Origin: Candidatus Baldrarchaeum yapensis
GTDB taxonomy: Archaea > Asgardarchaeota > Baldrarchaeia > Baldrarchaeales > Baldrarchaeaceae
DNA: 24,680 nt
Assembly (NCBI GenBank): GCA_016840465.1
Contig: JAEOSH010000030.1
Coordinates: 1-24,680, forward strand
Direction of reading: 5' to 3'
The position numbers and the translations under genes were made by a program. The notes beneath the pieces were generated by a model, which ran no database searches, had not been told where the DNA came from, and saw nothing but the letters and a program-made list of their open reading frames with translations. Shown here piece by piece: positions 3,985-24,610 of the stretch (positions within the stretch are counted from its first letter, which is position 1; each line of letters begins with the position of its first letter).

Positions 3985-5221
3985 GAACCGAGGATGGTAA
4001 ATTAAAATCACTCAATTTTCTGAGAAACGGGTCCTCGTTCAGGACCTCCTTTATCAACTCCAACGGAACCGTCAATGTTATCTTCTTGGTCCTGCCGTAC
4101 CGCCCCTTACTTATAACTCTTGCGTTTATTAGCCCTAACATGTCCAAATCGTTAAGAAGATCACTCATCCTGCGTTGCGTCACAGGATCTATTCTCAAGA
4201 ACTGACAAACTTCCTTATACGTTTCGTATATGAGACCTGTTATCGCCTCCGCAACCTTTGCCCTTTTAAGCAGATAAATGCTGAATAGAACCAACTTTGA
4301 TTGTAATGGTAACGTGCGCACGGTCTCCCTCACAGTATCTCTCTCTATCTCCCTCAAAGCTCTCCAAACATGATCCGTCGTAACCTTACTGGCTCCCTCC
4401 CTCTCCGCAATTTCCCCAGCAACCCGCAGGAGATCTAAAGCTCTTCTAGCATCGCCATGCTCCCTCGCAGCGAGCGCTGCACAGAGATTTATCACGTCAT
4501 CTCCCACGACCCCATCATTAAAACTTATTTTCACCCTCTGCAACAATATGTCCCTTAATTCGTCTGCAGTATATGGGGGGAAGAAGACTTCTTCCTCACT
4601 TAAGCTACTAAGAACACGAGGATCGAGATAATCCTTAAACATCATGTCATTCGAAATCCCGATCACACAAACGCGTGCCTGAGAAAGATGCGAGTTTATC
4701 CTAGTGAGATTGTACAAAACGTCATTTGCAATGTCTTTATTCTTTTTTATCAATCTGTCTAACTCATCTAAAACTATTATCATTAGATTTGATGTTCTAT
4801 CAAGGTAAGCCTTGAACTTCTCGTAAAGCGTGTCGGTGGGTAACCCGGTGAAGGGAACTTTCCCACCAACTTCTTCACAGAGGCGTGCCAACACCCTATA
4901 ACACGTATCCACAATCCTACAATTAATATATGCGGTCAAGGGCTTTGAAACACCTAATTTGTCACATACGTTCTCTAAATACTTGAGAACATAAAGTGCA
5001 ACAGCGGTTTTTCCGGTCCCCGTCTTCCCGTATAAGAACGCGTTTGAGGGCGTCCCGCCCTTGAGTGCAGTGGCAAGGATCGCACCCAACTTTGTTATCT
5101 GCTCCTCGCGATGAGGAAGTTCATCAGGAACATAACTAGGCCTTAATGCGTCCCGGTTCTTGAACAGAGATGGCGATGACAGTATCTGCTTGAATAGATT
5201 ATCGAGAATGCTGCTCTTCAT
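3974..5221 (-). CDS. cdc6: Orc1/Cdc6 replication initiator (AAA+ plus winged helix)
   Basis: Walker A GKTGTGKT, Walker B VLDELD, sensor GDARRALDLL, and C-terminal wH segment SKGRYGRTK. The start is placed at ATG 5221 after a GGTGA RBS; the ORF track extends to 5293. Confidence 0.96.
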   Translation of the reverse strand: MKSSILDNLFKQILSSPSLFKNRDALRPSYVPDELPHREEQITKLGAILATALKGGTPSNAFLYGKTGTGKTAVALYVLKYLENVCDKLGVSKPLTAYINCRIVDTCYRVLARLCEEVGGKVPFTGLPTDTLYEKFKAYLDRTSNLMIIVLDELDRLIKKNKDIANDVLYNLTRINSHLSQARVCVIGISNDMMFKDYLDPRVLSSLSEEEVFFPPYTADELRDILLQRVKISFNDGVVGDDVINLCAALAAREHGDARRALDLLRVAGEIAEREGASKVTTDHVWRALREIERDTVRETVRTLPLQSKLVLFSIYLLKRAKVAEAITGLIYETYKEVCQFLRIDPVTQRRMSDLLNDLDMLGLINARVISKGRYGRTKKITLTVPLELIKEVLNEDPFLRKLSDFNLPSSVLKR

Positions 5222-18702: not shown

Positions 18703-19972
18703 AATTCCATTGAGTCATGCTCCAGATCCCTACCACCTGGTTGCATGGGCCGAAGAACAGACCTGTCATGTAGCGCTTCTAGAGGGATATTGTGGTCTTA
18801 GTGGTTGGTCCCGGTATACAATAGTAGCGTATGGAAAAAAGCATAAGGTTGAGGAAGAAAACCCATTTAAGGCATATAAAGCCTTAGAAAAGATTACATC
18901 GGCGAATTATAAAAGTGTACCATGTCCGGATATGGTTTTTGGCGTTGTTGGATATGAGGCAGTTGTATCAGTAGAGCCGTGGTTAGGTAGCATGTTAAAA
19001 AGACACAGATGGCCAGTAGTTATTGCATTTAAGCCGGAAGTTTTAGTAGTCTATGACAAATTACTAGGAAACGTAATAATTTATCCGGAAGATACGGATT
19101 TGGGTAAAAAGGATATAAATGGATGGAGGCCGGCACAAGGGCCAATTTACGAGACTCCAAAAGAAACCTTTGAGGAATGGGTTAAGGAAGCATTAACACT
19201 TTTGGATAAAGGAGAATTTTTGCAAATTGTGCTGTCGAGAGTTGAGCAATACGAGTATCAAGGCGAGCCACTGGCTCTCTATAAAAGACTTGCTCAGAAG
19301 AGCCCATCGCCATATATGTTCTATATGCGGTTCGATGACAGATGGATACTAGGGTCAAGTCCTGAACTACTAGTCAAAATGGAGAATGGCCGCCTAGAGA
19401 CTTGTCCAATAGCGGGTACAAGGCCCCGTGGGGTGACGCCCGAAGAGGATCTTGCGTTAGAAGAGGAATTGCTCAGAGATGAAAAAGAGATAGCTGAACA
19501 CCTTATGCTCGTAGATCTTGCAAGGAACGATTTAGGAAGGGTAGCACGTCCAGGTACCGTTAAGGTATTGAAGTTCATGGATGTAGAAAAATATAGTGGT
19601 GTACAACACATAGTAAGCCGTATTGAGGCGGATGCGCACCTAGGAGTAACATATATCGATGTACTCGCATCAATGAACCCTGCTGGAACGGTATCTGGGG
19701 CGCCTAAACCGAGAGCCATGGAGGTTATTGCCAAACTTGAGGATGAACCGCGGGGCCCTTATGCCGGTGCTGTTGGCATGTACTCAAAATATGCTGGGGA
19801 GACTGCTATAACAATACGAAGCTTGTGGAATATCGATGACAGCACAATCGAAGTAAGGGCTGGTGCAGGAATAGTTTATGATTCCAAACCGTATCGCGAA
19901 TATTTGGAAATTAAGTACAAGTTAAATGCGATATATCAGGCGCTTGGAATAAACGTGGAAAAAATTTTCTGA
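18662..19972 (+). CDS. trpE: Anthranilate synthase component I
   Basis: PSPYM, GSSPE, PIAGTRPRG, EHLMLVDLARND, PAGTVSGAPK and RAGAGIV. Confidence 0.95.
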   Translation: MLPLRTTIWEEARKIPLSHAPDPYHLVAWAEEQTCHVALLEGYCGLSGWSRYTIVAYGKKHKVEEENPFKAYKALEKITSANYKSVPCPDMVFGVVGYEAVVSVEPWLGSMLKRHRWPVVIAFKPEVLVVYDKLLGNVIIYPEDTDLGKKDINGWRPAQGPIYETPKETFEEWVKEALTLLDKGEFLQIVLSRVEQYEYQGEPLALYKRLAQKSPSPYMFYMRFDDRWILGSSPELLVKMENGRLETCPIAGTRPRGVTPEEDLALEEELLRDEKEIAEHLMLVDLARNDLGRVARPGTVKVLKFMDVEKYSGVQHIVSRIEADAHLGVTYIDVLASMNPAGTVSGAPKPRAMEVIAKLEDEPRGPYAGAVGMYSKYAGETAITIRSLWNIDDSTIEVRAGAGIVYDSKPYREYLEIKYKLNAIYQALGINVEKIF

Positions 19973-23420: not shown

Positions 23421-23566
23421 TGGTGCCGGGGCCGGGATTTGAACCCGGGACCTCCGGATCTCTCAGATGGCAACCCTATGAGTTTCACCCGCCGATCTGA
23501 TAATCGGCAACCGGCGCTCTAACCAGGCTGAGCTACTCCGGCCGCGGGTATGCCGCGGTCCCCGGC
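23421..23566 (-). tRNA. tRNA-Met(CAT), elongator type, with three introns (7/8, 30/31, 37/38) and encoded CCA
   Basis: Removing 23536-23559, 23484-23510 and 23460-23476 gives a 78-nt cloverleaf, GCCGGGG-TAGCTCAGCCTGGTTAGAGC-G-CCGGA-CTCATAA-TCCGG-AGGTC-CCGGG-TTCAAAT-CCCGG-CCCCGGC-ACCA. Each junction fits BHB geometry. Confidence 0.9.
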
Positions 23567-23840
23567 GCACTTCTGGCCCCGGCTGTAAATAGAATACCTT
23601 ATATGCGTTATAAAACTTTTCTTAGGAACTCTAAGGTAGCGATATGATATGAGAGTTCAAGTGAATGGAAAACTAGATGTAGGAAAAACGATTTCCGAAC
23701 ATCTCTTCGTTGTCCCTGTCGTTCGGCTAAAAAATCTGATACGACGAATATGAAACCATTTACTTTTTCTGCTGGATGCATGAACTAACGAAAAACTTAT
23801 TTGACACCCATAATCATATTCTACAACGTGGATAATGCGT

Positions 23841-24008
23841 GGGGCCGTAGTCTAGCCAGGTAGGACGGCAGAACCCTGGGTCTCAGGGTTCCGTTAAGGG
23901 CTCCAGAAGAGTGATCTACAACGGGTTTACCGACCGTACGGGATGAAGAACTTCTGGAGCGCTAGAGAAACCCGTTGATCGCGGGTTCAAATCCCGCCGG
24001 CCCCACCA
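23841..24008 (+). tRNA. tRNA-Trp(CCA) with two introns (28/29 and 37/38) and encoded CCA
   Basis: Removing 23870-23897 and 23907-23969 gives a 77-nt cloverleaf with anticodon arm GCGGG-CTCCAGA-CCCGT. Confidence 0.9.
23907..23969 (+). ncRNA. Intron-encoded box C/D guide RNA for C34 and C39 of tRNA-Trp
   Basis: D' CCGA (23930-33) preceded by guide CAACGGGTTT; C' GGGATGA (23940-46); guide CTTCTGGAGC followed by variant D CTAGA (23962). The D+5 rule lands on C39 and C34. Confidence 0.82.
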
Positions 24009-24028: not shown

Positions 24029-24156
24029 GGGGCCGTGGTCTAGCTTGGTATGATGCCAGTGCCGTAAATCTCACGGCGGTGAAGCTTGGGACCTGGTGGA
24101 CCGGAGGACGAGTCCTCCGGGCCAAATCCCGGGTTCAAATCCCGGCGGCCCCACCA
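24029..24156 (+). tRNA. tRNA-Pro(TGG) with two non-canonical introns (30/31 and 46/47) and encoded CCA
   Basis: Removing 24060-24083 and 24100-24126 gives a 77-nt cloverleaf (CCAGG-CTTGGGA-CCTGG; variable loop TGGTC). Central helices are TGCC/GGTG and TGGT/GCCA, with 3-nt bulges. Confidence 0.9.
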
Positions 24157-24204: not shown

Positions 24205-24278
24205 GCCGCCGTAGCTCAGCCTGGTGGAGCGGCGGGCTTGTAACCCGCCGGTCCCGGGTTCAAATCCCGGCGGCGGCT
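24205..24278 (+). tRNA. tRNA-Thr(TGT), intronless, CCA not encoded
   Basis: GCCGCCG/CGGCGGC acceptor, GCGGG-CTTGTAA-CCCGC anticodon arm, GGGTTCAAATCCC T-arm; TATA TTTTTAAA at about 24166. Confidence 0.96.
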
Positions 24279-24505: not shown

Positions 24506-24610
24506 TGGTGCGGGGGGTGGGATTTGAACCCACGCAGGCCTGCGCCAGCGGATCTTAAGTCCGCCGCCTCTGGACATCTAGCCCCATTGTCCGGGCTCGG
24601 CCACCCCCGC
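24506..24610 (-). tRNA. tRNA-Leu(TAA) with a D-loop intron (21/22) and encoded CCA
   Basis: Removing 24570-24586 (17 nt) restores the D-loop AGCCCGGACAAAGGC. Anticodon arm GCGGA-CTTAAGA-TCCGC; long variable arm. Confidence 0.92.

Follow-up and report, generated by a model that had tools for sequence, protein, structure and literature searches.

Archaeal tRNA introns are described at noncanonical positions such as 20/21 to 59/60, in addition to the canonical position 37/38, and position 3/4 in the Thermoproteales has been called "an extreme case" (PMC4090602). These 3/4 introns, which interrupt the acceptor stem, are credited to Sugahara et al. 2008 (cited in PMC4090602) and to Marck & Grosjean 2003. 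Asgard genomes are described as very intron-rich, with many introns missed by tRNAscan-SE (PMC11291895). Mispredicted tRNA genes have been exposed before by the logic of promoter distance (Chan et al., PMC3218864).

Here, we analyze a tRNA gene of Candidatus Baldrarchaeum yapensis that lies in a stretch of 24,680 nucleotides (contig JAEOSH010000030.1 of assembly GCA_016840465.1), called the window below. A first-pass annotation of the window, made from the sequence alone, had proposed that this tRNA-Met gene holds three introns, one of them at position 7/8, with a 3′ end that imitates nucleotides 1 to 7 of the tRNA. Judged from sequence and comparative data, the 24 nt at 7/8 are very probably a real, recently gained BHB intron at a rare position. 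Upstream of it we find a further copy of the acceptor strand, which may help in splicing.

RESULTS

Anatomy of the tRNA-Met gene

Read from 23542 on the minus strand, the tRNA(CAU) gene starts with GCCGGAG and has an A6xC67 mismatch; a perfect acceptor strand, GCCGGGG, lies 24 nt upstream of that start, at 23566-23560 on the same strand. All of these elements are located where the first-pass annotation had placed them. In minus-strand order, GCCGGGG (23566-23560) is followed by ACCGCGGCATACCCGCGGCCGGAG (23559-23536, also written ACCGCGGCAUACCCGCGGCCGGAG) and then by TAGCTCAG from 23535, with UAGCUCAGCC as the downstream continuation. The gene ends with the acceptor strand CCCCGGC, followed by A and CCA (23431-23421). 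The Rfam tRNA model places the gene at 23542-23424 with 48.5 bits, a 53-nt insert in the anticodon arm, and the 6:67 pair marked as nonstandard. ARAGORN calls no tRNA on the unspliced locus, and it reads the 75-nt RNA from which three introns have been removed as tRNA-Met(cat) with a perfect acceptor stem.

All parts of the gene are on the minus strand. Exon 1 (23560..23566; nucleotides 1 to 7, GCCGGGG) is the perfect complement of CCCCGGC (23431-23425) and equals the 5′ strand of 12 orthologues. The candidate intron 1, of 24 nt at position 7/8 (23536..23559), is delimited by the BHB scan, a local fold, and shuffles. Exon 2 (23511..23535; nucleotides 8 to 30, comprising the D-arm and the 5′ part of the anticodon stem) follows from the Rfam alignment and the splice reconstruction, and intron 2 (23484..23510; 27 nt, position 30/31) has a full hBHBh′ motif. 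Exon 3 (23477..23483; nucleotides 31 to 37, ACUCAUA, with the anticodon CAU) again comes from the splice reconstruction, and intron 3 (23460..23476; 17 nt, at the canonical position 37/38) comes from the BHB scan. Exon 4 (23421..23459) holds nucleotides 38 to 73 (23459-23424), including CCCCGGC and the discriminator A, and ends with an encoded CCA at 23423-23421. The introns at 30/31 and 37/38 are also real, as their BHB motifs indicate.

From its ARAGORN call, we take the gene to be probably that of the elongator tRNA-Met, with tRNA-Ile2(CAU) as the other candidate. The initiator tRNA (AGCGGGG..., with A1:U72) is encoded by a separate gene on contig C30, and BLAST with the mature sequence found no second elongator Met gene in the assembly, which is 96% complete and consists of 100 contigs. 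With no other elongator Met gene in the assembly to take its place, it must be functional.

The BHB motif at 7/8 and the look-alike start

Our BHB scanner required four central pairs and 3-nt bulges and counted the flush lengths of the inner and outer helices; the splice rule applied was a cut after the second base of each bulge. At 7/8, it reports the same parts that the first-pass annotation had assembled by eye: a central helix of CCGG (23565-62) with CCGG (23541-38), the bulges GG|A and AG|U, and a 6-bp inner helix (CCGCGG/CCGCGG), with the outer helix, previously described as weak, at 0 bp. On the exon side, nucleotides 2 to 5 (CCGG) form the central-helix strand, and the 5′ bulge opens with G6 and G7. 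The intron itself consists of A (the third bulge base), CCGCGG at 23558-53, a CAUAC loop at 23552-48, CCGCGG at 23547-42, CCGG at 23541-38, and AG at 23537-36. The splice rule would yield GCCGGGG|UAGC, and a cut at 6/7 would give an identical product; the predicted mature junction sequence is GCCGGGG-UAGCUCAG.

Under a strict hBHBh′ definition, with both flanking helices, the 7/8 motif fails and falls into a relaxed one-helix class. The inner-helix-only geometry is also found in several other accepted introns of the genome. The local MFE fold of a 50-nt region, at 79% of the ensemble, contains both the central helix and the 6-bp helix, with the GGA bulge between them; in this fold, the 3′ splice site lies inside a weak 3-bp helix, with no clean 3-nt bulge. 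When the 24 nt were shuffled 200,000 times, four central pairs plus a flanking helix of at least 3 bp arose at the exact boundary in 0.11% of the shuffles, and four central pairs plus a 6-bp inner helix arose there in 0.0015%. For intron 2, the central helix is CGCC/GGUG, the bulges are GG|U and AA|A, the inner helix has 7 to 8 bp, and the outer helix has 3 bp. Intron 3 has the central helix CUCA/UGAG, the bulges UA|G and AG|A, and a 3-bp inner helix; its outer helix is the 5-bp anticodon stem, which counts 1 bp before and 5 bp after the removal of intron 2. BLAST found no sibling copies in the genome of the 7/8 intron or of the Met and His leaders described below, and there is thus no sign of intron transposition.

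The resemblance between the end of the intron and the start of a tRNA has a structural basis. CCGG, nucleotides 2 to 5 of the acceptor strand, is palindromic, and so the central-helix strand contributed by the intron must read CCGG too. G23542, just before this CCGG, closes the inner helix with C23558, and the AG after it is the part of the 3′ bulge that belongs to the intron. BHB geometry would then account largely for six of the seven identities with GCCGGGG. The likeness to nucleotides 1 to 7 noted by the first-pass annotation is therefore present, but this "mimicry" is mostly forced by the palindrome and the geometry of the motif. With a look-alike forced in this way, covariance models settle on the wrong start. 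That standard scanners would miss the position, as had also been predicted, holds for Rfam/Infernal and for ARAGORN; we do not extend it to tRNAscan-SE 2.0, in which candidates are extended by 60 nt in a search for BHB introns near the ends (PMC8450103).

Acceptor stems, orthologues, and processing enzymes

In the 36 other bona fide tRNAs of the genome, acceptor pairs are standard in 252 of 252 cases, with the G3:U70 of the tRNA-Ala genes counted as standard. The A6xC67 pair would be the sole acceptor mismatch among 37 bona fide tRNAs.

Orthologues of the gene were obtained from two same-order genomes, and scans by sequence pattern gave 12 more records in JGI metagenomes and GTDB genomes; those of the 12 that carry a name are Candidatus Baldrarchaeota MAGs. 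In all orthologues, GCCGGGG stands directly before U8, and the 3′ end reads CCCCGGCACCA. They share the introns at 30/31 and 37/38 and have a T-loop intron in place of the 7/8 intron, and neither the 7/8 intron nor the leader copy occurs in the 12 scanned orthologues. The orthologues without the 7/8 intron point to a lineage-specific gain and to GCCGGGG as the ancestral mature 5′ strand. The pattern GCCGGGG N14-34 CCGGNN TRGCTCAG... had zero matches in GTDB genomes and JGI metagenomes. The first-pass annotation had suggested that relatives be rescanned for acceptor mismatches with a perfect strand upstream; no relative with this 7/8 intron was found among the orthologues, 400 Asgard genomes, GTDB species genomes, or JGI metagenomes, and hence there is no covariation to draw on. 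The intron is confined to one assembly, and no other genome in the set belongs to the same family.

EndA is present in the genome as two paralogues (PF01974; open frames of 203 and 199 amino acids; genes at C56:16145-16384 and C53:4158-4412), a pair that, going by sequence, would be compatible with an (alpha-beta)2 enzyme. The genome also encodes an archaeal RNase P RNA.

A hidden tRNA-His gene

A search for T-arm and acceptor ends that lacked an Rfam call led to a tRNA-His(GUG) on contig C78, at ~18986-19124 on the plus strand (L001/L064), with the gene itself at ~19005-19124. The locus has no Rfam match at E≤0.001. Its order is G-1, GCCGGGG, U8, a 22-nt intron (UGCGCCGAUAAGGCGCCCCGAU), and then GGGGUAGCGG.... 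The BHB motif, at 8/9, is built on acceptor nucleotides 3 to 6 (CGGG/CCCG); its bulges are GU|U and AU|G, its inner helix has 5 bp, and 0.03% of shuffles match it. A second intron, also of 22 nt, interrupts the anticodon stem, and a tRNA-His becomes readable only after both the 8/9 intron and this second intron are removed. The true strand is preceded by the expected G-1, which is encoded in the tRNA-His of four of five relatives, and a distal copy of the strand in the leader is preceded by A. No 8/9 intron was found in the tRNA-His of six other Asgard genomes. We consider this gene independent support for the idea that the machinery of this organism can handle acceptor-strand BHBs.

A leader copy of the acceptor strand

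The first-pass annotation does not mention an additional element in the leader of the Met gene. Upstream of exon 1, the window reads ACA, then GCCGGGGCC (23583-23575), then AGAAGUGC, and then GCCGGGG. The distal copy (23575..23583, minus strand) consists of GCCGGGG plus CC and is a 9-nt complement of GGCCCCGGC, that is, the end of the T-stem and the 3′ acceptor strand. The 8-nt spacer AGAAGUGC (23567..23574, minus strand) separates this copy from the true strand and would be expected to be removed by RNase P. In the tRNA-His leader, GCCGGGA GCCGGGG CAAGUG stands directly before the true strand, and its spacer, CAAGUG, is similar to the Met spacer. An exact copy of the acceptor strand upstream of the gene was found only for Met and His (2/2, versus 0/44 for the other tRNAs, among 46 in the genome); two further double matches in this survey are neighboring tRNA genes. 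Full-text literature searches yielded no paper in which an acceptor-strand copy in the leader serves an intron in cis.

The sequence AAGUG is common to several leaders, being present as GAAGUGC in Met (window 23567-23574) and as CAAGUG in His (C78:19000-19005) and in a tRNA-His of a distant family (L065, G025). We set aside homology of the Met and His leaders through AAGUG; the motif is too short, and RNase P context or chance could explain it.

In partition-function folds, the Met leader copy pairs with the 3′ strand with P ~0.99. Without the leader copy, the true strand occupies the 3′ strand (P 0.92 to 1.0), and the BHB central helix has P≤0.003; with the leader copy, the true strand becomes available, and P for the central helix at 75°C rises to 0.21 for Met and 0.13 for His. 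In the His folds, it is a shifted register of the two leader copies that occupies the 3′ strand. In folds of the whole precursor, the BHB never rises above 0.21 and is a minority conformer. When the spliced product is folded, the 9-bp leader copy stays on the 3′ strand (P 0.99), and its release would need a factor outside the model, such as tRNA tertiary structure or proteins. Leader truncation was the informative control in these folds; GC-rich scrambles formed new pairings and gave no clean control.

We also scanned 400 Asgard genomes, blind to introns, for two GCCGGGG copies 3 to 20 nt apart. At least 75 matches were obtained, mostly chance matches in GC-rich genomes, and 30 loci were screened. 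Among these 30, the only other tRNA-linked match is a tRNA-Ser(CGA) gene in another Asgard family (L096, G012:C24, ~4625-4870, plus strand), which reads GCCGGGG, an 8-nt spacer, GCCGGGG, a 32-nt insert, and UAGCCAAG. The insert lies directly after nucleotide 7 and has a relaxed BHB (CCGG/CUGG, GG|A, AA|U), with a 2x2 loop that breaks the inner helix. This gene has several further introns, and its distal copy is at ~-36 from the TATA box.

Predicted promoter and transcript start

The predicted TATA box of the Met gene, TTTTATAA (23608..23615, minus strand), is the best match to the tRNA promoter consensus of the genome (aaaNTTTAAA) and is a consensus match only; an A-rich, BRE-like run lies upstream of it at 23620-23617 on the same strand. 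Promoters of tRNA genes in this genome (~19 genes) have an A-rich stretch and then TTTAAA or TTTATA, 32 to 41 nt before the mature 5′ end. In 19 other tRNA genes whose box is clear, the hexamer start lies at -32 to -41 relative to that end. For Met, the hexamer start is at -48 from 23566, -31 from 23583, and -72 from 23542; for tRNA-His, the distances are -48 (true strand) and -35 (distal copy). The distances of -31 (Met) and -35 (His) put the distal copy at the very start of the predicted transcript, and the Met primary transcript probably begins near 23584-23586. TATA spacing can thus be used in this genome as a yardstick for miscalled tRNA 5′ ends.

Other interrupted tRNA genes

Five tRNA genes are clustered within 1.2 kb of the window: the Met gene, a hidden tRNA at 23841-24008, a tRNA-Pro, a tRNA-Thr(UGU) at 24205-24278, and a tRNA-Leu. 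The hidden gene (plus strand) is a 168-nt multi-intron tRNA, GGGGCCG...CGGCCCC A CCA; after the removal of two introns, its anticodon is possibly CCA (Trp). ARAGORN and the Rfam tRNA model both miss it, and its only match is a subthreshold one to tmRNA, at 29.7 bits. The tRNA-Pro(UGG), at 24029-24153 on the plus strand, is an interrupted gene of 125 nt whose anticodon stem and variable region hold inserts, and the tRNA-Leu(UAA), at 24509-24610 on the minus strand, is interrupted by an insert in the D-loop. At least 11 tRNA genes of the genome are missed or only partly matched by Rfam as a result of multiple or D-arm introns: the initiator Met (C30), Tyr (C61), Ser (C56, C86, and C95), His (C78), Lys (C66), Arg (C56), and three in the window. 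An automatic catalogue, made by splicing and rereading with ARAGORN, solved many of the multi-intron genes and not all; the failures include the genes at 23841-24008 and 24029-24153 and the initiator on C30.

DISCUSSION

We propose that the Met transcript carries, in order, the spare copy (23583-23575), the 8-nt spacer, the true strand (23566-23560), the 24-nt intron, and the rest of the tRNA with the introns at 30/31 and 37/38. The 24-nt intron would fold with acceptor nucleotides 2 to 5 into a BHB unit, and the splicing endonuclease (EndA) would cut at GG|A and AG|U. A ligase would then join G7 to U8, replacing the look-alike GCCGGAG with the genuine GCCGGGG and creating a fully paired acceptor stem. 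These events we infer from the anatomy of the locus, the rarity of the motif by chance, the 5′ ends of the orthologues, and the parallel with tRNA-His; the order of the steps and the part given to the leader are inferred as well. While the true strand is engaged in the BHB, the leader copy may sit on the 3′ acceptor strand and so prevent its pairing with the true strand or with the look-alike; in our judgment this step has an even chance of being right. We are just as evenly divided over the steps that would follow splicing, in which the true strand would take over the 3′ strand and RNase P would remove the leader.

That the leader copy is a cis helper of Met splicing is, on the basis of the folds, a suggestion with close to an even chance of being correct. 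The leader copy is found only in the two genes with a conflict over the strand, which suggests a cis-acting aid to RNA folding and a fixed order in which splicing precedes trimming. A broader and more tentative proposal, to which we lean slightly less than halfway, is that acceptor-proximal introns in Asgard archaea may be two-part devices, in which the 5′ strand is borrowed as a splice signal and a stand-in from the leader is placed on the 3′ strand. If true, the stand-in would also force splicing to occur before RNase P trimming.

Other explanations of the locus need to be weighed. If there were no third intron, the tRNA would start at 23542 as GCCGGAG with its A6xC67 mismatch, and the upstream hairpin and copies would form a long, structured leader cut by RNase P. 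This would agree with the Rfam alignment, which runs from 23542 at 48.5 bits, and with ARAGORN, which accepts the two-intron product as tRNA-Met; it would also suit a BHB that lacks an outer helix and is in the minority in whole-precursor folds, and an intron seen in no relative. However, the sole mismatch would then be set against 252 standard pairs and would fall in the sole elongator Met gene, and the orthologues have G6 in 12 of 12 cases. The leader would be ~42 nt long with the promoter at -72, far outside the range of -32 to -41. Only 0.0015% of shuffles reproduce the exact BHB register, and tRNA-His would be unreadable without its equivalent intron. We consider a two-intron gene with this leader improbable.

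It is also conceivable that the distal copy (23583-23577) provides the mature 5′ strand and that 41 nt (23576-23536) are removed, at once or as 17 plus 24 nt, to give the same mature sequence. The spacing between the TATA box and the distal copy is indeed the usual one (-31 for Met, -35 for His, and ~-36 for the G012 tRNA-Ser), the CCGG of the distal copy can pair with the CCGG of the intron, and in folds this copy wins the 3′ strand over the proximal one. Against this, a 41-nt or 17-nt intron would have an inner helix of 1 bp (read by hand) and no outer helix, and the scanner reports neither; moreover, in tRNA-His the required G-1, encoded in four of five relatives, precedes the proximal copy, and an A precedes the distal one. 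For these reasons, namely, an inner helix of 1 bp with an outer helix of 0 bp and the position of G-1 in tRNA-His, we rejected both the single 41-nt intron and an additional 17-nt intron that would begin at the distal copy, and we regard this mature 5′ end as very unlikely. The locus might finally be a decaying pseudogene or an assembly artifact with duplicated acceptor fragments, the functional elongator tRNA-Met being encoded in the unassembled 4%. An assembly of 100 contigs at 96% completeness leaves room for this, and no close relative confirms the arrangement. Yet the four exons are intact and almost identical to those of the orthologues, the other two BHB motifs are good, there is a promoter match and an encoded CCA, and the tRNA-His gene, on another contig, has the same architecture; a broken or misassembled gene is hardly credible.

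We therefore prefer a BHB intron at 7/8, as the first-pass annotation had argued. In favor of it are a predicted splice product that equals the 5′ end of the orthologues, the argument from the sole mismatch, the shuffles, the tRNA-His gene, and the promoter. For annotation, the consequence is that a covariance model or ARAGORN misplaces the 5′ end or misses the gene, and the genome would look as if its elongator tRNA-Met were defective and its tRNA-His missing. For splicing, it would mean that four bases are contested between a splice signal and the acceptor stem, stretching the known tolerance of protein-based tRNA splicing.

Like the noncanonical BHB introns described in other archaea, the proposed 7/8 intron is short (24 nt), would be spliced by proteins, and has a 4-bp helix between two 3-nt bulges and one flanking helix. 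The gene also resembles those of the Thermoproteales in having multiple introns, and three per gene is the published maximum in that group; the two EndA paralogues recall the (alpha-beta)2 enzymes of broad specificity. In contrast to the Thermoproteales cases, the position is 7/8, at the junction of the acceptor stem and D-arm, and the phylum is Asgard, not Thermoproteota. The central helix here is formed with acceptor nucleotides 2 to 5, so that the BHB and the acceptor stem are mutually exclusive, which is another difference from the Thermoproteales introns. Unlike the transposing intron families of the Thermoproteales, the 7/8 intron has no sibling in its genome.

Closer in phylogeny are the Asgard introns treated in PMC11291895 and 10.64898/2026.10.13.758758. 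In these papers, many introns are noncanonical and multiple, a large share is missed by annotators, gains are lineage specific and recent, and most genomes have two EndA paralogues, all of which our case shares. Their focus differs in being on Atabeyarchaeia, Freyarchaeia, and Jordiarchaeia and on genes missed through the D-arm; the available parts of the text contain no description of a 7/8 intron mistaken for the start of a tRNA or of a leader copy of the acceptor strand.

The trans-spliced split and permuted tRNAs of Nanoarchaeum, Caldivirga, and Thermofilum (PMC3218864) offer a parallel for the leader. They, too, have extra GC-rich complementary segments in leaders or trailers, which there join the pieces and form the BHB, and there, as here, promoter distance revealed a gene longer than predicted. 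In the Met gene, unlike split tRNAs, everything is in cis on one transcript, and the extra segment is proposed to hold the 3′ acceptor strand and not to build the BHB.
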